Positions 47,261 to 55,360 of a stretch of 64,000 nucleotides of DNA are shown here, in pieces. The DNA lies in NCBI GenBank assembly GCA_039715015.1, contig JBDLIE010000008.1, positions 20,660 to 84,659 on the forward strand, written 5' to 3'. A program made the translations under genes and the position numbers. The stretch comes from Thermodesulfobacteriota bacterium (GTDB lineage Bacteria; Desulfobacterota; Desulfobulbia; Desulfobulbales; SURF-16). Each line of letters begins with the position of its first letter. Position 1 is the stretch's first letter. Below the pieces are notes generated by a model. The model was given only the letters and a program-made list of their open reading frames with translations, made no database searches and was not told where the DNA came from.

Positions 47261-49369
47261 TTATACCTTTATGTATTTCTGCAGCTCATCCTGGAGCTCT
47301 TCAACCTTTAAAATGTTAAATCTGTCAGCGTTAACCCGGAGGTCGTTGCCGAGCTGGGTCAGTTCGTCCTGGCCTTCCGTTTCACCTAGTTTTTCAATTT
47401 CCTGTCCCAGCCTTGAGGCGTCACTGAGGTTGCCGCTCTTTTTATCATAGCCTGCAAGAATTTCCTGGATTTTCTCGACAAGATTTTTGCTAACAAAAGG
47501 AGAGGGGCCAGTTGTGTCAGGGGCCGCTTGGTCTGTTGATTTGGCCATGTCAGCGTAGGATGATAAAAAGCGGGCCATTTCATGTTCCAGCTCACGAATC
47601 TGAAAGGGCTTGTTGAGATAGCCGTCAAAAAGAGACTCCTCGTTGTTGAAATCAAGGACCGAGGCGGAAATGGCAATGATCGGGATGTCAGCAAGACCAG
47701 GATTTTTTTTGATGATGTCTGTGGCCTCATAGCCGTCCATAACAGGCATCTTTAAGTCCATGAGGATAAGGTCAGGTTTTCCCTCCTTCAGAATGTCCAG
47801 GGCCACCTTGCCATTTTCTGCTGAAATGATTGTTACCGCTGTTTTTCTGAAAAAATCTTTAATAAGTTGACAGTTAATTTCGTTGTCATCCACCACCATG
47901 ACGCGGCCTTCTTGGAACGAGACACGGCCAGAAGAGGAGGCTGTGGAGGAAGCAGGGGTATTTGTTGATACCTCTATTCCAGGGATGCTTAGTTCAAAGA
48001 CGCTGCCTTTTCCTGGGTTGCTATTCAGGGCCATTGTGCCGCCCATCAGGGTGACAAGGCGCTGGCTCAGAGGGAGGCCAAGGCCGGTGCTGCCCGTGTT
48101 GCGAATAGCTAAAGCGCTGATTTTATGGAAGGGTTCAAAAAGGGTTTCTTGGTCATTTTTGGCAATGCCGATACCCGTATCTTCAACAGCAATTATCAGT
48201 TCTATAGTGTTGTGGCCCGAGGCCTTGTGCTGCACGCGAAGAGTTACGCCTCCTTGCTCGGTAAAGGAAATGGCGTTTCCGAGGAGGTTGAAAAGAACCT
48301 GTCTCAGCCGTGTTTCATCAAAAATGACAGAAGGGGGGATCTCTGGGGAAATTGCCACCTGCAGGTCGATATTTTTGGCCTTAGCCCTCTCGGTAAACAT
48401 CCTGCCGATATTATGGAAAAACGTTGCCGTGTCAACAGACTGGTTCTGTATTTTGAGGCGACCGGCCTCAATTTTTGACAGGTCAAGGATGTCGTTAATG
48501 ATGACAATCAGGTCTTTGCCACTCTTTATGATGGTCTGCACATACTCCTTTTCCCTGTCCGTCAGGTTGGCCGAGGTAAGCATCTCACTGTAGCCGAGGA
48601 TGGCATTCATAGGGGTGCGAATTTCATGGGACATATTGGACAGAAATTCGTTTTTCAGGCGATTAGCGGTTTCTGCCATGTCTTTGGCCCGGCTCAGCTC
48701 AGCGGCATTTTTTTTGAGCTTTTTCTCCTGCTTGATCTGCTCACTGATGTCTTCGGAGATGATGACTACATGGTCGCCGCCGTGAGATGCCAGAAAAGAA
48801 ACATGCTCTTCGGTGGGATGACAGTCTCCATCACCACTGCAAAGATGGCCGTAATGGCTGAAATGGCCCTGGGCCTTTATTCTTTCCCAGGCCTTTGTCC
48901 GTCCCTGTCCATCGGTGGGGAAATTCTGGTCAAAAAAGGAGATATCTTTTGTAAGAAGCTCGGGCCTAGAGAGGCCTGTGGCCCGGCATGCTGCCTCGTT
49001 TACCATGGTGAGCTTAAAGTCCCGGTTATACCAGAAGATGTTAATCGGAACGGTGTCCAGGGTGAGCCAAGCAAGGGAGAGTTCGTCTTCCAGGCTCTGA
49101 GAGCGGGCCTTTGCCCTGGCCAACTGACGCCGATGCCAGAGATGAAGAAAGACAAGGAGTGCCAGGAGGGCGAGCCCTCCTGAGATGACGGCCTGAAAGG
49201 TTTTCATGCCGGGTTTCTGGATTTCAGTTTCCGTTGAAGCGGCCACGGAGGCATCTTGCTGGAGTTGGCTGTAGACCGGACAACACCATAAAAGAGAGAC
49301 GGCAAGAAGCGGCAGGAGAAAGACGAGGCATACCTTGGATAATGATAAGATTTTATAAGCGCAATTCAC
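47261..49369 (-). CDS. hybrid sensor histidine kinase (TM - PAS - HisKA - HATPase - REC - REC)
   Basis: H-box SHEIRTPMN, HATPase G-boxes, and two receiver domains (VMVVDDNEIN.., and a C-terminal REC). Confidence 0.8.
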   Translation of the reverse strand: MNCAYKILSLSKVCLVFLLPLLAVSLLWCCPVYSQLQQDASVAASTETEIQKPGMKTFQAVISGGLALLALLVFLHLWHRRQLARAKARSQSLEDELSLAWLTLDTVPINIFWYNRDFKLTMVNEAACRATGLSRPELLTKDISFFDQNFPTDGQGRTKAWERIKAQGHFSHYGHLCSGDGDCHPTEEHVSFLASHGGDHVVIISEDISEQIKQEKKLKKNAAELSRAKDMAETANRLKNEFLSNMSHEIRTPMNAILGYSEMLTSANLTDREKEYVQTIIKSGKDLIVIINDILDLSKIEAGRLKIQNQSVDTATFFHNIGRMFTERAKAKNIDLQVAISPEIPPSVIFDETRLRQVLFNLLGNAISFTEQGGVTLRVQHKASGHNTIELIIAVEDTGIGIAKNDQETLFEPFHKISALAIRNTGSTGLGLPLSQRLVTLMGGTMALNSNPGKGSVFELSIPGIEVSTNTPASSTASSSGRVSFQEGRVMVVDDNEINCQLIKDFFRKTAVTIISAENGKVALDILKEGKPDLILMDLKMPVMDGYEATDIIKKNPGLADIPIIAISASVLDFNNEESLFDGYLNKPFQIRELEHEMARFLSSYADMAKSTDQAAPDTTGPSPFVSKNLVEKIQEILAGYDKKSGNLSDASRLGQEIEKLGETEGQDELTQLGNDLRVNADRFNILKVEELQDELQKYIKV

Positions 49370-49605
49370 AGGGGATTGATCCGGTAGGCTTCTCTTTATT
49401 ATGACGTGTTTTTTCAGGTTTATGGTTTGTCACCCTTCAGGTTAAAATAAAGCGATGCTCTATGTCAAAGTAAAACAGAGGGTTAGAAGACGGACAGCGC
49501 AAAATGAGCCATGGGAAATGGTTTGCTTAATCATCATGAACGATTTATCTTGATGGAAATGGGAACCAAAACAGGTTGCCAGCTTTCTTAAAAGAAAAAC
49601 AACAA

Positions 49606-49966
49606 GGGGGTGAAACGGGTTCGACGGGGATATATAAGCTCAGGTTGCATGTCGAGAATTCTATCTTTCTCGTAAACATTGATAGATTTATTAAAATAGT
49701 CGCAGATGACTATGCATATGCTGTGGCAGCATAAATAAGCCACTGTTCTCCTTCGTTATTCCTGCGGACGGAGGAAGAACATCGACTAGCGGGATAGCCC
49801 CTGATTTTTTGGGTGGGTCAATGGGCGAAACTAAACACCTGATAGTGCCGAAATCTCCTCGTCCCGGTGGAGATCAGGCACGATAAGCAGCTAAGCGGGA
49901 ATAAACATGTAGATACCTGCAGGGGAGTATTTTCGGACGGGGGTTCAACTCCCCCCACCTCCACCA
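49606..49966 (+). ncRNA. ssrA: tmRNA (SsrA) with predicted tag ADDYAYAVAA
   Basis: The 5' end GGGGGUGAAACGGGUUCGACGGGG pairs with the 3' end ..CACCUCCACCA (7-bp acceptor with a G3:U70 pair and an encoded CCA). T-arm GGGGGUUCAACUCCCCC. The tag ORF GCA GAT GAC TAT GCA TAT GCT GTG GCA GCA TAA lies at 49702-49734. Confidence 0.9.
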
Positions 49967-50133
49967 TTTTTTAGTGTTAAAACAGGTGGTTGAGAAAGAT
50001 TGTTCGCGTTTGAAGGTGGCCCAAAGGTGGCCCAGCTCTTTATCGCGATAATCAAACACAAGAAGCCATCCTTTTGGGGTGGCTTTTCTTTTTTATGATG
50101 AGATTCAATCTCATTTCGATATTGTTCAGCTAA

Positions 50134-51291
50134 CTAATCAACATCGCTATATGCGATAGCAAATATCTCGGGAGATATGTAAACTTTTGGTCTAGTTGAA
50201 GCTCTGCTTTCTCTAATTATTCCTAACTTTTCAAGTATGGAAAGGTCGTTTCTTGCGGTTGGGTAAGTTATTTCAAAAATCTCAGTTGCTTGCGGGATAG
50301 TTATAAGCGGAGATTCAAAGAGTCTTTCGATGATTCCATGCAACCGAATACTTCCTTTGCAATTTGCAACCATTTGTAGGTACCTCTCCCTTACAGCCAC
50401 TAGTTGGTCGAATCTCTTAATCGCATCCTTTGCTTGGTAAATTGTTGCTCGCAAGCAGTATGCAATCCAAGTATCAAAGTCCCCTTTTGCGCTTACGTTA
50501 AATAAATTTTGAATATATTCTTCTTTGTATTTGTCAAAGAAGGCACTCAAATAAAGCCAAGGGCTAGTTAATTTGCACCAGTGGAAAATCATTAGCGATA
50601 GCAGCAATCTGCCAACCCTTCCATTTCCATCCAAAAAAGGATGTATAGTTTCAAATTGATAATGAACAAAAAAACAAAACACCAGAGGATCAATAGAGCT
50701 TTCTTGGTGAATATATTTTTCTAAATCAAATAAGTTGCCTTCAAGTTTGTCTGGAGGAGGAGGTATAAATCTTTTGTCAGATCCGACATGAACCTGAGAT
50801 CGTCTAAAGTTGCCAGGATCTCTATGGTGTCCTCGGACACCAGACAGAAGTACCTTGTGGATTTCGCGGAGAAACCTTAATGAGACGGGTATCTCGGAAA
50901 GAAGCTGTTGGCCTTTGATAAGAGCTTCATGGTAGTTGAAGACTTCTTTCCAAGAATTTATTTTATCTTTATTTGACTTCGGTTCTTTAGGTTCTATTTC
51001 AAATAAAAGAAGCTCTTCAGGGGTTGCGTATGTTCCTTCTAGGCTTGACGATTTTAATGCTTCGCGATGCTGTAGTGGCTTGAGCAATAAATTATAGTTG
51101 GGCATATGTCTCCCAACACCGTCTAATCTAGCTAGCTCTTCACGTGCTTCTGCCAGTAATGGCCATAAATTCCCTGAAACTTGAAAATCCGTAGGAAGAT
51201 GATCAGGCACAAAAGCCCAATCATCACTTTCTTGAATGCTTATCTTAACCAGCTCTCCAGGTGAGTTTTCAGTGAAGAAAGTCTTTTCCAT
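50134..51291 (-). CDS. Fic family protein (class II, N-terminal SxxxEG inhibitory motif) with C-terminal winged-helix region
   Basis: Fic motif HPFLDGNGRVGR and inhibitory-helix-like SSSLEGTYAT near the N-terminus. The gene is clearly AT-rich compared with its neighbours. Confidence 0.85.
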   Translation of the reverse strand: MEKTFFTENSPGELVKISIQESDDWAFVPDHLPTDFQVSGNLWPLLAEAREELARLDGVGRHMPNYNLLLKPLQHREALKSSSLEGTYATPEELLLFEIEPKEPKSNKDKINSWKEVFNYHEALIKGQQLLSEIPVSLRFLREIHKVLLSGVRGHHRDPGNFRRSQVHVGSDKRFIPPPPDKLEGNLFDLEKYIHQESSIDPLVFCFFVHYQFETIHPFLDGNGRVGRLLLSLMIFHWCKLTSPWLYLSAFFDKYKEEYIQNLFNVSAKGDFDTWIAYCLRATIYQAKDAIKRFDQLVAVRERYLQMVANCKGSIRLHGIIERLFESPLITIPQATEIFEITYPTARNDLSILEKLGIIRESRASTRPKVYISPEIFAIAYSDVD

Positions 51292-51319
51292 TAGGTGTCC
51301 ATTTTTATTAGAAGAAGAA

Positions 51320-51588
51320 TTTTAACTAAAACAGTTGAATTAAAATATCAGCCAATAAATTTTAATTCAACTGTTTTAGTTAAAGGGAGTTAAATTAGAA
51401 GCGATTCTTTAAAGGCAGTCTCCTTTAAAGTCGAAATTGTTAAATATATCTATCTGTTACGGAAATTCCGGGGACACCATAGAATGGCACTAGTTTAAAA
51501 TAAATTAATGGTTCAGAATTGCTGACAATAGAGGGTTTAAATCGGATTTTAAATCCTTAAGCTAGCGCCATTCTATGGTGTCCCCGGA
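51320..51588. repeat. AT-rich intergenic region with two long inverted repeats
   Basis: IR1 is TTTTAACTAAAACAGTTGAATTAAAA (51320-51345) paired with TTTTAATTCAACTGTTTTAGTTAAA (51361-51385). IR2 is GGGGACACCATAGAATGGCACTAG (51469-51492) paired with CTAGCGCCATTCTATGGTGTCCCC (51561-51584). Confidence 0.6.
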
Positions 51589-51671
51589 ACTCGCAAGGAA
51601 GAAATAAAAAAGCTCCACCAGAAAATCAAAAAATAGATGAAAATTGCTACAAGCAAAAAGGAGGAGTTTTA

Positions 51672-52049
51672 ATGTTAAATTTACAGAAGAAAGACTTTGT
51701 TTCCCTTATCCTATGTTTATTGCTTGTGGATATGGTTTTTTCTAGTCCCAGTTTAGCGTCTTCGGCAATAACAGGATTGGTAAAAAAGCAGAGTGTCTAT
51801 GTGGCAATTTACTCGCATATATACCATGGAAACAAAGAAAAACCGTTTGATTTAGCCGCAACTCTCAGCATTCGCAATACAGATCTGCATAAAAATATCA
51901 GGCTCCTCTCTGTTGATTATTTTGACTCAAAGGGAAGTTTTCTGAGGAAATATGTGGATAAACCCACGGCTTTAAAAAGTCTTGCGACAACTCGTTATGT
52001 TATAAAAAGCTCAGACACGAGTGGCGGCTCCGGGGCAAAATTTTTGTAA
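51672..52049 (+). CDS. small secreted protein, probable DUF3124 family
   Basis: Signal peptide and the VYVAIYSHIYHG..TLSIRNTD motif, as recalled for DUF3124. AT-rich. Confidence 0.45.
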   Translation: MLNLQKKDFVSLILCLLLVDMVFSSPSLASSAITGLVKKQSVYVAIYSHIYHGNKEKPFDLAATLSIRNTDLHKNIRLLSVDYFDSKGSFLRKYVDKPTALKSLATTRYVIKSSDTSGGSGAKFL

Positions 52050-52230
52050 GGTGGGAATCGGATCATCCAGTAAATCCTCCCTTAATTGAAGCAATCATGA
52101 TAAGCACAAAAAGCCAACAAGGGATTTCTTTTGTGTCAAGAGGGCAAGTGATAGAAGAGTAAAGCTAAAAACTATCTCACCTTATATTGATTTTAATAAG
52201 TAAATAGAATTTTCCGGGGCAAGAAAAGTA

Positions 52231-52965
52231 ATGATCTTCTCTATTATCCTTAAAAAATTAAGAGACGCTTTTACCGACCTGCTTCCTATCATTGTTGTTA
52301 TCGCTTTTTTTCAGATTGCTGTTCTGAAACAGCCTTTGCCGCAGCTGGGGGAGGTTCTTTTTGGCGCTCTTCTTGTGGTGGCCGGGCTCAGCCTGTTTGT
52401 TCAGGGCTTGGAGATGGGGCTCTTTCCCATAGGTGAAGAAATGGCTCATGCCTTAGCCAGGAAGGGCAGTCTTTTTTGGCTTCTGCTCTTTGCCTTTGCC
52501 CTTGGCTTTTCAACCACTGTGGCAGAGCCAGCACTTATAGCAGTGTCGGCCGAGGCCGCGCACATTGCCAGTGAGGGTGGTCTTATCGATTCCAACAGTG
52601 ACACTCTTCGGCAATATGCCTTTGGCCTACGTATGTCTGTCGCCTTTTCTGTGGGCCTGGCTATCCTTATCGGTGTGATGCGTATCATCCGGGGCTGGCC
52701 TCTTCATTATCTGATCATTGGTGGCTATATTGTTGTCATGTTGATGACCATCATTGCTCCGAAAGAGATTATTGGTATAGCCTATGATGCCGGCGGAGTC
52801 ACGACCTCCACCATCACTGTCCCTTTGGTTGCCGCCCTTGGCGTTGGGTTGGCCTCAACCATCAGGGGCAGGAGCCCTCTTGTGGATGGCTTTGGTCTTA
52901 TCGCCTTTGCCTCTCTAATGCCCATGATCTTTGTCATGGGATATGGGCTCATAGTTTTCGGATAA
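52231..52965 (+). CDS. DUF1538 family membrane protein (copy 1)
   Basis: Polytopic membrane protein with a repeated [23 protein letters not shown] motif. It is paralogous to the next gene. Confidence 0.7.
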
Positions 52966-52980
52966 GTACAGGAGCTTTGA

Positions 52981-53775
52981 TTGGGCTTTTTACTCGATTT
53001 TTTAAAAATTCTGCTCGCTACCTGCAAAGATGTGCTGCCGATCATCATTCTTATTACCGGCTTTCAACTTCTGGTCTTACGGCAACCAATTCCTCATCTG
53101 CGCCGCCTTATTGTTGGCGGGCTTTATGTTGTTGCCGGTCTGGCGCTTTTTCTGGTGGGTCTCGAAAAGGCTCTTTTCCCCTTGGGTAAAATCATGGCTA
53201 ACCAGCTCTCTGATCCCGTTTTTGTTTATGGCACCAGTGAAGCTGTATTGCATGCAGACTGGAAGGCCTATGGCTGGGTTTACCTCTTTGCGGCAATGAT
53301 CGGTTTTGCCACTACCATTGCCGAACCTTCTCTCATTGCCGTGGCCTTTAAGGCAAACGAAGTCTCCGCCGGAACCATTAGCCAGTGGGGGCTACGTATT
53401 ACTGTTGCCATAGGAGTTGCTTTTGGAATCAGCCTTGGTACGTTTCGTATTGTTACCGGCACACCACTTTATCTCTATATACTTGTTGGCTATCTGGTGG
53501 TTATTGTGCAGACTATATTTGCCCCCAAAAGTATTATCCCATTGGCATATGATTCTGGAGGGGTCACCACTTCAACGGTAACGGTGCCACTGGTGGCAGC
53601 CCTTGGCCTGGGTCTGGCCAGCACAGTGCCAGGGCGAAACCCTGCCCTTGACGGTTTTGGTCTTATTGCTTTTGCTAGTCTTTTCCCAATTGTTGCGGTT
53701 ATGGGCTATGCCCAGATAATGGACTGGCGAACACATCGTAAATCAAAAATTATGGAGAAGAAAAATGCGCTTTAA
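52981..53775 (+). CDS. DUF1538 family membrane protein (copy 2)
   Basis: Paralogue of the preceding gene ([23 protein letters not shown]). Confidence 0.7.
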   Translation: MGFLLDFLKILLATCKDVLPIIILITGFQLLVLRQPIPHLRRLIVGGLYVVAGLALFLVGLEKALFPLGKIMANQLSDPVFVYGTSEAVLHADWKAYGWVYLFAAMIGFATTIAEPSLIAVAFKANEVSAGTISQWGLRITVAIGVAFGISLGTFRIVTGTPLYLYILVGYLVVIVQTIFAPKSIIPLAYDSGGVTTSTVTVPLVAALGLGLASTVPGRNPALDGFGLIAFASLFPIVAVMGYAQIMDWRTHRKSKIMEKKNAL

Positions 53776-54112
53776 ACTCATTTTGTCTTCAGTAAAGTCT
53801 GATATTACAGACCATATTGTTGATACAGCTAAAAAGGAAGGGGCCACAGGGGCAACGATCATCCCGGCAAGGGGGACCGGCATCCATGAGGCCAAGACTT
53901 TCTTCGGCCTTTCGCTGGAGGCGCAGACTGATATCATTTTACTCCTTGTTGAAGAGCATCTTGTTCCTAAAATTTTGGATGCTATCAAAGAAGCTGGAGA
54001 ATTCCATAAGCCAGGAACCGGTATTGCCTTTGTGGTACCGGTGGAGCATGTGGTGGGGCTGGAAAGCCAGATGGAAAGATTTAAAGAAGAAGTGCGGGAT
54101 AGCTACTTTTAA
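53765..54112 (+). CDS. P-II-like (GlnB-fold) small regulatory protein
   Basis: 115 aa with ferredoxin-like beta-alpha-beta repeats and a T-loop-like RGTGIHEAKTF. It overlaps the previous stop by 11 nt. Confidence 0.7.
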   Translation: MRFKLILSSVKSDITDHIVDTAKKEGATGATIIPARGTGIHEAKTFFGLSLEAQTDIILLLVEEHLVPKILDAIKEAGEFHKPGTGIAFVVPVEHVVGLESQMERFKEEVRDSYF

Positions 54113-54139
54113 GCAGCCATTTTTATTTGGAGAAAAAAT

Positions 54140-54544
54140 ATGGAACATGACAGCACGCCAATAATACGGGCACGGGACGTAATGCAAAAGGGCATTGTCT
54201 CCATTGACGGCATGGCCACAGCCAAGGAGGCTGCCGCCAAGATGCGCGCTGAAAAAACCTCCTATCTTCTGGTGGACAAAAGACATGACGATGACGCCTG
54301 GGGCATCTTGGTCGTCCAAGATTTCATTAAAGGGGTGATTATACCTGGCCGCTCTCCTTCCGAGGTGAATGTCTATGAGGTCATGACAAAACCAGTGATC
54401 ACAGTGCCGGCTGACATGGATATACGTTATGTTGCCCGCCTGATTTATCGTGCCAATATCCGCCGGGCCCCGGTTGAGGACCGCGGAGAACTTGTCGGCA
54501 TAATTTCTCTTGCCTCCATAATCCTCGACAACGAGCTTTTTTAG
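54140..54544 (+). CDS. CBS-domain pair protein
   Basis: Two CBS motifs (..VMQKGIVSIDGMATAKEAAAKM.., ..VMTKPVITVPADMDIRYVARLI..). Confidence 0.8.
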   Translation: MEHDSTPIIRARDVMQKGIVSIDGMATAKEAAAKMRAEKTSYLLVDKRHDDDAWGILVVQDFIKGVIIPGRSPSEVNVYEVMTKPVITVPADMDIRYVARLIYRANIRRAPVEDRGELVGIISLASIILDNELF

Positions 54545-54612
54545 TCAGAGAGAAAAAATCAATTGGCCCCAAAAGGCAGGAACCGAACCAATGCACATGG
54601 ATTTTCAGTCTG

Positions 54613-54897
54613 ATGATTGTGGCAAGCTGGAAGGTCTTTGAAAAGGCTGGCCAGCCTGGATGGGCTTGTCTGGTCCCCATCTACAATCTGTATGTCTTTT
54701 TGGTGATTGCCGGAAAACCCGCCTGGTGGATTTTGCTCATGTTGGTCCCCATCGTTAACATCATCTTTGCGGTGATCGCCTGTGTCGCCTTTGCTCAGAA
54801 ATTCGGCAAGGATGCTCTCTTTGGAGTGGGTATTGCTTTGCTGGGCATTGTTTTCTTGCCTATTCTTGCCTGGGGCGATGCCCACTATTCAGGGTAG
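54613..54897 (+). CDS. small three-TM membrane protein (DUF5684-like)
   Basis: 94 aa with hydrophobic segments, matching the pattern of a widespread small membrane protein family. Confidence 0.45.
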   Translation: MIVASWKVFEKAGQPGWACLVPIYNLYVFLVIAGKPAWWILLMLVPIVNIIFAVIACVAFAQKFGKDALFGVGIALLGIVFLPILAWGDAHYSG

Positions 54898-55360
54898 TTA
54901 AATTTCTACAAAAACAGCTGGGTGGTGTTTGTCCATCCTTTATGCAGCGCAATTGTCTATTGGCAATTGCGCTGTTTTTTGTTCATGGCCATCTGGGCGG
55001 CACTCCATTTTTTTTAATTTTGCTTGTCTGAGTAGGGTTCTTTTTCTTGATAGACATTAGGCAGGTGAATCAATAGTATAATTTTTAAAGCAGCTATCTG
55101 GGGGGATAGCCGGTGGTCGATGGGCGGAAATACCCATGTCGGATGTCAAATTTCGTTTTCGACTTGCTTAATCACTTCAGCTGCTGAAGGTGGCGACAAT
55201 GCGGATCCTGCCCTGCTCACCCAGGTTCCCAGCAGCATTTTTTTTCAAAAGACCCTGGGCCGGAAAGCGGGAGACAAGACAGAAGGTCTAGGGCAGCATC
55301 TGCTCGCCAAACCCATGGCCTCTGCCAAGACCAGGGAGGCTGAATCAGCCTGAAGGACCA

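Follow-up and report, generated by a model that had tools for sequence, protein, structure and literature searches.

Genes and features of the locus

The window considered here is the whole 64,000-nt stretch of contig JBDLIE010000008.1 from a Thermodesulfobacteriota bacterium, and our subject is a group of adjoining genes within it: two paralogous DUF1538 genes, called umpA and umpB below for the homology described further on, a gene for a PII-like protein and a gene for a protein made up of a pair of CBS domains (Table 1). We read them as encoding a transporter together with candidate regulators of that transporter. An earlier sequence-only reading had joined these four genes and a preceding DUF3124 gene into one module. 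All five open reading frames (ORFs) were recovered on the plus strand at the same positions, with the 15-nt gap between umpA and umpB (52966-52980) and the 11-nt overlap of the umpB stop with the PII-like start (53765-53775) exactly as described, and each of the five family labels corresponded to a Pfam match. The packing is indeed tight for the DUF1538 and PII-like genes; it is not for the DUF3124 gene, which lies 68 nt from umpA after repair of its reading frame and 181 nt as originally called.

Shine-Dalgarno sequences were located 7-8 nt ahead of the umpB, PII-like and CBS starts, with AGGAG 7 nt upstream of the umpB TTG at 52981 and GGAG ahead of both ATG 53765 and ATG 54140. The G+C fraction is 0.45-0.54 across the DUF1538, PII-like and CBS genes and 0.33-0.42 over approximately 50000-52250, which agrees with the AT-rich islet and the AT-rich first gene reported earlier. 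The only strong terminator-like site on the plus strand is a hairpin following a sixth gene, for a small DUF5684 membrane protein, and no such site was present between the CBS gene and this one. We therefore count DUF5684 into the transcription unit, which in this genome probably extends as umpA-umpB-PII-CBS-DUF5684, with the hairpin as its likely 3' end. An Rfam E-value scan of 49300-55500 detected neither a riboswitch nor a leader RNA ahead of the module, the only matches being the tmRNA and spurious hairpins on a 26-nt palindrome. Separate from the unit, the SLC12-type homologue further downstream (TIGR00930, 466 bits, below the cut-off) is a second ion-homeostasis gene adjoining the module.

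Table 1. Positions of the genes and features discussed; window coordinates except in the last five rows, which refer to the loci named there
Feature	Position	Strand	Remarks
umpA-like gene	52231-52965	+	244 aa; Pfam DUF1538 E=9e-69; predicted A-type subunit, membrane protein
umpB-like gene	52981-53775	+	264 aa, TTG start; Pfam DUF1538 E=3e-66; predicted B-type subunit, membrane protein
PII-like gene	53765-54112	+	115 aa; Pfam P-II E=3.5e-10, 40.6 bits versus cut-off 25
CBS-pair gene (stand-alone Bateman module)	54140-54544	+	134 aa; Pfam CBS E=3e-20, two stretches, 72.6 bits
DUF5684 small membrane protein gene	54613-54897	+	Pfam DUF5684 E=1e-24; 68 nt past CBS gene
Intrinsic-terminator-like hairpin	54944-54975	+	14-bp stem, 7 G-C pairs, T run
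SLC12-type cation-chloride cotransporter homologue	55361-57598	+	AA_permease + SLC12 C-terminal domain; TTG start
DUF3124 ORF as called	51672-52049	+	125 aa; Pfam DUF3124 E=9e-33
DUF3124 gene, true extent	51672-52162	+	after joining two frames
Fic/DOC family gene	50134-51291	-	Fic_N + Fic + C-terminal HTH; NCBIfam SoFic-like 166 bits, below cut-off
tmRNA (ssrA) gene	49606-49966	+	Rfam RF00023, 178.9 bits, E=3e-72
Tandem PII relative, Firmicutes locus L082	4560-5228
Tandem PII relative, Firmicutes locus L083	4557-5225
Tandem PII relative, Firmicutes locus L085	5341-6015
Tandem PII relative, Firmicutes locus L086	5481-6149
Tandem PII relative, Firmicutes locus L088	5538-6203

Conservation of the gene neighbourhood

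In a forward test, one genome per species was scanned with both DUF1538 paralogues of the window. At least 577 loci were confirmed, of which the best 80 were kept and their six-frame ORFs searched with the window proteins. These 80 loci belong to Desulfobacterota, Bacteroidota, Gammaproteobacteria, Nitrospirota, Magnetococcales, Longimicrobiales and Rhodospirillaceae, and their UmpA homologues are 65-90% identical to the UmpA of the window. The umpB gene directly followed umpA in every one of them (80/80), and a PII-like gene followed umpB in all 75 loci where there was room for it, the other five contigs ending 0-134 nt past umpB. A CBS gene came after the PII-like gene in 65 of 74 loci. The distance from the umpB stop to the PII-like start ranged from -16 to +108 nt and was mostly between -11 and +20 nt, with an identical 11-nt overlap in 17 loci.

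In the reverse test, metagenome contigs were scanned with an alignment of the PII-like protein. Directly upstream of the PII-like gene we found a DUF1538 gene in 72 of the 73 loci with room, and downstream of it a CBS gene in 50 of 70. Among distant relatives (30-35% identity) the pairing of DUF1538 and PII genes was kept in all seven examined. The order umpA-umpB-PII-CBS recurs across phyla and is thus not a product of chance. On the strength of the forward, reverse and distant-relative linkage, the conserved core is assigned to the two DUF1538 genes and the PII-like gene, whose product belongs to a DUF1538-dedicated subfamily; the CBS gene is a frequent fourth gene in the clade of the window, and a dispensable one. 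The conservation of DUF1538 genes with both PII-like and CBS genes, proposed earlier as a check, is accordingly borne out very strongly for the PII-like gene and more weakly for the CBS gene.

In five Firmicutes loci the two DUF1538 domains are fused into a protein of ~500 aa, and the end of the fused gene is overlapped by a gene for a tandem PII protein of ~222 aa. Throughout the Firmicutes loci examined, the tandem PII gene always came after the fused double-DUF1538 gene. The DUF1538-PII module is evidently mobile, as two alphaproteobacterial plasmids among the distant relatives carry DUF1538 genes followed by a PII gene: a Methylocystis plasmid (L081) with two full DUF1538 genes, and a conjugative plasmid of Chelativorans (L084) with a 90-aa fragment of the first DUF1538 protein and one full gene. 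IS66 transposase or conjugation-associated genes adjoin the modules on these plasmids.

When all ORFs flanking the 80 genome loci were clustered, no other conserved neighbour emerged, as none of the groups exceeded 11 loci. Sigma-54-type regulators, histidine kinases and Kef-type antiporters (6 loci) made up the largest groups. These Kef-type (CPA2-like) antiporter genes lie a few hundred nt downstream of umpAB-PII in gammaproteobacterial loci, for example at 9100-11094 in L063. The DUF5684, SLC12 and Fic genes of the window were found in none of the 160 related loci (80 genome and 80 metagenome).

The transporter pair and its candidate regulators

Both DUF1538 proteins consist of a single PF07556 domain with a full-length profile match, and they are 54% identical to each other. 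The umpA product scored 369.9 bits with the NCBIfam UmpA model versus 210.3 with UmpB, and the umpB product 332.5 bits with UmpB versus 205.2 with UmpA, so that by their profile scores the two proteins are the A-type and B-type homologues of UmpAB. Neither reached its equivalog cut-off (490 and 500 bits respectively). Seven other homologues, six from Gammaproteobacteria (including Gynuella and Oceanospirillales) and one from Rhodospirillaceae, likewise remained below the cut-off at 360-398 bits, and the UmpA and UmpB models are therefore narrow.

A 2017 study reported UmpAB of Halomonas zhaodongensis, formerly "DUF1538", to be a heterodimeric Na+(Li+,K+)/H+ antiporter (PMC5484666). The statement in the sequence-only reading that the substrate of DUF1538 proteins is uncharacterised was thus outdated, the more so as NCBIfam models for both subunits exist. 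Tolerance of E. coli KNabc to Na+, Li+ and alkaline conditions needs umpA and umpB to be co-expressed, the two proteins co-immunoprecipitate from membranes, and everted vesicles containing UmpAB exchange Na+, Li+ and K+ for H+, optimally at pH 9.0 and with K0.5 values of 0.26-0.46 mM (PMC5484666). The genes of the window resemble those of Halomonas (NF041627/NF041628) in being adjacent, co-directional and paralogous, A before B, with the longer subunit in second place. Homologues from cable bacteria are 56% identical to Halomonas UmpAB and have been used as salinity markers (PMC10030654), and the homologue in one cable-bacteria locus (L012) is ~80% identical to the window UmpA; by way of these, the window pair would be roughly 55-60% identical to the characterised Halomonas pair.

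The proposal that the two paralogues build one heteromeric transporter has fared well, since both subunits are needed and associate in Halomonas and since natural single-chain fusions of two DUF1538 domains exist, which support an A+B unit. We consider it very probable that UmpA and UmpB form a heteromeric transporter. That cation/proton antiport is also its native function is a view towards which we lean with more reserve.

The AlphaFold2 (AF2) model of a natural fusion, P0121, made with a 120-sequence alignment, was confident (predicted local distance difference test, pLDDT, 84.4; predicted TM-score, pTM, 0.84). Each half of the model is predicted to have a number of short helices grouped about two motifs that do not vary across the family, and each subunit carries the helix-break motifs 'AEP' and 'YD-GG-TT-T-TVP'. 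These contain or accompany E99-P100, R151 and D186-x-x-G189 (UmpA numbering), of which E99, R151 and D186 are invariant across A, B and distant members. The one invariant Glu, Asp and Arg of each subunit are likely candidates for ion and proton sites. Stretches rich in K and R occur at the N-terminus of UmpA and in the C-terminal tail of UmpB, and the halves of P0121 are joined by a short linker; from these termini and this linker we infer an N-in/C-in topology for each domain and a parallel arrangement of A and B. Some of the 'seven TMS' (transmembrane segments) of PMC5484666 would then be re-entrant or half helices. As for known structures, phmmer found no relative of the transporter in the PDB by sequence, and Foldseek returned nothing at E<=0.001 for the model, with TM-scores of 0.2 or less, so that the predicted transporter fold appears to be without a solved relative.

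Few signal proteins are as widespread as those of the PII family. The AF2 model of the PII-like protein (pLDDT 77.9, one good model among five) predicts a beta-alpha-beta-beta-alpha-beta PII core with an extra C-terminal helix (residues 100-114). All of its top 50 Foldseek matches were PII or PII-like proteins with a probability of 1.00, and TTHA0516, SbtB, GlnK, CPII and PotN are among its neighbours. The best match was TTHA0516 of Thermus thermophilus (PDB 2cz4, a putative PII-like signalling protein; E=3.7e-6, 29% identity), which by sequence matched only marginally (E=0.007). Searches with single sequences and profiles found no solved member of the PII-like subfamily, giving only canonical PII or NifI-like proteins at E 5e-8 or weaker. 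Homologues of the PII-like protein numbered 5241 at E<=1e-3 in a 90%-clustered collection, and the closest 120 are 85-100% identical and derive from metagenome-assembled genomes of the Desulfobacterales type. At 50% identity the clusters numbered 1859 with a limit of E<=1e-3 and 648 with one of E<=1e-10; the best 150 cluster representatives include 105 tandem, 28 single-domain and 4 triple-domain proteins. The single chains with three domains are consistent with a three-domain unit. In these triple-domain relatives (P0262, P0263, P0337 and P0381) one chain makes up a covalent pseudo-trimer.

An alignment of 76 sequences of the family showed conservation of GATGAT, R-G-x-G, K-T-F-F-G-L, P-G-T-G-I-A-F and V-x-G-x-x-x-Q, the T-loop motif K-T-F-F-G-L being more than 95% conserved. 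Equivalents of Tyr51, which in canonical PII belongs to the Tyr51/Ser49 modification site, and of Gln39 and Lys58, which serve 2-oxoglutarate and ATP, are absent from the window protein, the aligned positions being His, Ala and a deletion. Alignment with E. coli GlnB gives the same differences in ligand residues as alignment with GlnK1. The protein is, then, a member of the PII superfamily and not a canonical ATP/2-oxoglutarate sensor. It has no cysteine and therefore no SbtB-type redox R-loop. It differs from GlnK and SbtB in its divergent B-loop and C-terminus, its shorter T-loop, the predicted additional helix and its frequent tandem and triple relatives, and from SbtB also in having DUF1538 instead of SbtA as its neighbour and no Cys pair. 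The tie of PII-like and CBS proteins to ion homeostasis recalls PstA/DarA and the c-di-AMP-binding CBS modules of osmolyte and Mg2+ transporters. PstA/DarA has a long B-loop and a short T-loop (PMC6516651), whereas the B-loop of the window protein is of canonical length, with no insertion relative to canonical PII. We found no link between the window module and c-di-AMP. A Borrelia 'PII-like' paper proved to deal with YitT/DUF2179, a family unrelated to this one.

The closest solved relative of the CBS protein is the CBS pair of CBS-CP12 (PDB 5nmu; E=3e-23 over residues 8-131). Of AMP, ADP, ATP and cAMP, only AMP is bound by CBS-CP12 of Microcystis aeruginosa, whose inhibition of its target depends on AMP (PMC6142219). 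By analogy with this AMP-binding relative, an adenylate or energy-state input through the CBS protein is plausible. The window protein is without the CP12 domain, which CBS-CP12 needs for hexamer formation and signal transfer, and in place of phosphoribulokinase, the target of CBS-CP12, its target would be the transporter or the PII-like protein. We give about even odds to the CBS protein being a second input, and we regard adenine nucleotides as ligands more tentatively still.

Proposed regulation, alternatives and significance

In the AmtB-GlnK and SbtA-SbtB systems a co-encoded PII-family protein plugs the transporter with its T-loop. The module of the window is similar to these in having a PII-fold gene immediately after the transporter gene, a near-obligate pairing and a conserved T-loop, and is dissimilar in that the target would be a heterodimeric cation/proton antiporter family of unrelated, unsolved fold. 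Our overall reading, to which we give a probability of about 0.6, is an UmpAB-type cation/proton antiporter with dedicated PII-like and adenylate-sensing CBS regulators. UmpA and UmpB would sit side by side as one unit exchanging Na+, Li+ and K+ for protons, and translational coupling would keep the PII-like protein in fixed proportion to UmpB. Probably acting as a trimer, the PII-like protein would most likely dock its short K-T-F-F-G-L T-loop on the cytoplasmic face of UmpAB and switch transport in response to a small molecule that it binds, in the manner of GlnK on AmtB and of SbtB on SbtA. In clades that have it, the CBS protein would bind an adenine nucleotide and add a second, energy-state input. 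Since umpAB cloned on its own gives an active transporter in E. coli (PMC5484666), the regulators are better seen as modulatory than as essential subunits.

The genomic association is well supported, and from it and the sequences we infer the regulation itself, that is, the contact between the PII-like protein and UmpAB, its direction, the ligands and the role of the CBS protein. We regard direct regulation of UmpAB by the PII-like protein as probable. A more specific statement, that a dedicated, ligand-divergent PII-like protein, aided by an adenylate-sensing CBS protein in many lineages, gates a widespread family of cation/proton antiporters whose fold has not been seen before, is one that we hold only tentatively. 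On that view, the fusion of each partner in parallel and the triple PII in a single chain would reflect a fixed transporter-PII assembly.

Several points weigh against this reading. In the PII-like protein the B-loop is PGTGIAF where GlnK1 has PGDGKIF, so that Asp and Lys are replaced by Thr and Ile; the C-terminal R-x-R is absent, VGLESQ being aligned to VRVRT of GlnK1; and the T-loop is ~5-6 residues shorter than the canonical one. As the canonical nucleotide and 2-oxoglutarate residues are missing, ligand binding by this protein is an assumption. The docking of a trimer on a heterodimer raises a question of stoichiometry. On the side of the transporter there are the scores below the NCBIfam equivalog cut-offs, and the antiport assignment comes from a single study with heterologous over-expression and acridine-orange dequenching (PMC5484666). 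The CBS gene adjoins none of the seven distant relatives and is also absent in nine genomes. Lastly, no paper linking UmpAB or DUF1538 with PII or CBS was found among 8 million full texts, subscription-only works being outside the search; the name 'DUF1538' appears there in 6 papers and 'PF07556' in none.

Perhaps the transporter is plugged by the PII-like protein and has another native substrate, such as K+ in uptake or efflux, bicarbonate, ammonium or a small solute, with the antiport seen in E. coli as a side activity. All PII-transporter pairs known so far from the literature handle ammonium or bicarbonate, SbtB and CPII are among the structural neighbours of the PII-like protein, and many of the hosts are autotrophs or methanotrophs (Thiomicrorhabdus, Sedimenticola, Gallionellaceae, Nitrospirota, Methylococcales). 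Furthermore, the evidence for antiport comes from one laboratory system, and a fold with no solved relative does not allow the mechanism to be read from structure. Against this stand the direct vesicle assays, with sub-millimolar K0.5 for each of Na+, Li+ and K+ (PMC5484666). The module occurs equally in heterotrophic Bacteroidota, Bacillaceae and Clostridia, and its informative neighbours are concerned with ion homeostasis (the SLC12-type gene here, Kef-type genes in 6 loci, ClC in L082). DUF1538 is also among the Pfam families picked by a machine-learning model as predictors of optimal growth pH, together with Mrp/Mnh, Trk and Kdp (PMC13255231). With this evidence on both sides we consider another native substrate unlikely.

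Less likely again is that the PII-like and CBS proteins serve constitutively in the structure or assembly of the transporter, as subunits of it, or act on other targets, and are not ligand-controlled gates. The strict gene order with translational coupling is as for subunits of one complex. The missing ligand residues of canonical PII are in keeping with such a role too, as is the fact that both partners are fused in parallel in Firmicutes. To our knowledge, all characterised members of the PII superfamily are ligand-binding switches, which counts against such a role. So does the finding that UmpAB by itself reaches the membrane of E. coli and is active there (PMC5484666), as does the fact that the relative of the CBS protein is an AMP sensor (PMC6142219).

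That the full five-gene unit is functional, with DUF3124 as a periplasmic subunit of the transporter complex or an accessory to it, is very improbable. A same-strand DUF3124 gene does adjoin the module in 6 of the 80 genome loci and 4 of the 80 from metagenomes, which is above expectation for a rare family. Against this, more than 90% of loci lack it, its position varies (three upstream and three downstream in the genome loci), and in the window it is frameshifted and lies in an AT-rich, tmRNA-adjacent islet outside the composition range of the module. With these low counts and the frameshift, the term five-gene module was an overstatement, and DUF3124 is a loosely linked accessory or occasional neighbour outside the conserved core.

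The DUF3124 ORF as called has one hydrophobic, signal-like segment at its N-terminus (residues 10-28) and covers profile positions 2-87 of 123 of PF11322, and is thus not an intact full-length frame. The missing C-terminus (VRWESDHPVNPPLIEAIMISTKSQQGISFVSRGQVIEE*) is read in another frame at 52046-52162, and joining both frames gave a full-length match (2-123/123, 165.7 bits). Compared with an intact homologue (L001), the gene is one base short at an A4T5 run at ~52037-52045. As the full-length match is obtained only with the frames joined, there is therefore a 1-nt deletion (frameshift) at this run, and the gene is either a pseudogene or affected by a homopolymer sequencing error.

The AT-rich islet that contains this gene starts directly downstream of the tmRNA gene, as expected of an ssrA-linked island remnant; an att-like repeat of the tmRNA 3' end bounding the islet was searched for and not found. 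The Fic/DOC gene also lies in the islet and is divergent from the DUF3124 gene. Between the two are two large inverted repeats (51321-51384 and 51466-51589), one of them a perfect 26-nt palindrome with a 12-nt loop and the other having 33-nt arms, 94% complementary and 58 nt apart. Part of the second arm of the 33-nt repeat (TCTATGGTGTCC.CGGA) recurs within the Fic gene at 50821-50837. An operator, a MITE-like element and a structured RNA are possibilities for these repeats, for which Rfam gave spurious hairpin matches only. Upstream of the tmRNA gene is an ORF for a 702-aa hybrid histidine kinase (47261-49369, minus strand) with kinase and receiver-type sequence.

The transporter family has already been named and assayed, and the idea of a PII-gated transporter is established. 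What appears to be new is that DUF1538/UmpAB genes are accompanied by a dedicated PII-like gene and a CBS gene, of which we found no prior mention in the literature open to search, subscription-only works lying outside it. The sole functional study cloned and expressed Halomonas umpAB without these conserved partners and never mentions PII or CBS (PMC5484666), and genome papers scoring 'UmpAB' as a salinity marker overlook the regulators. With no solved relative of the predicted transporter fold to draw on, a structure of the complex would be instructive. The PII-like subfamily occurs in at least seven phyla, tied almost one-to-one to UmpAB-type antiporters, and would offer a new ligand-binding variant of the PII fold. 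If the proposed regulation is true, the homeostasis of monovalent cations, of Na+, K+ and pH, would join the processes under PII control, beyond the transporters of carbon and nitrogen.

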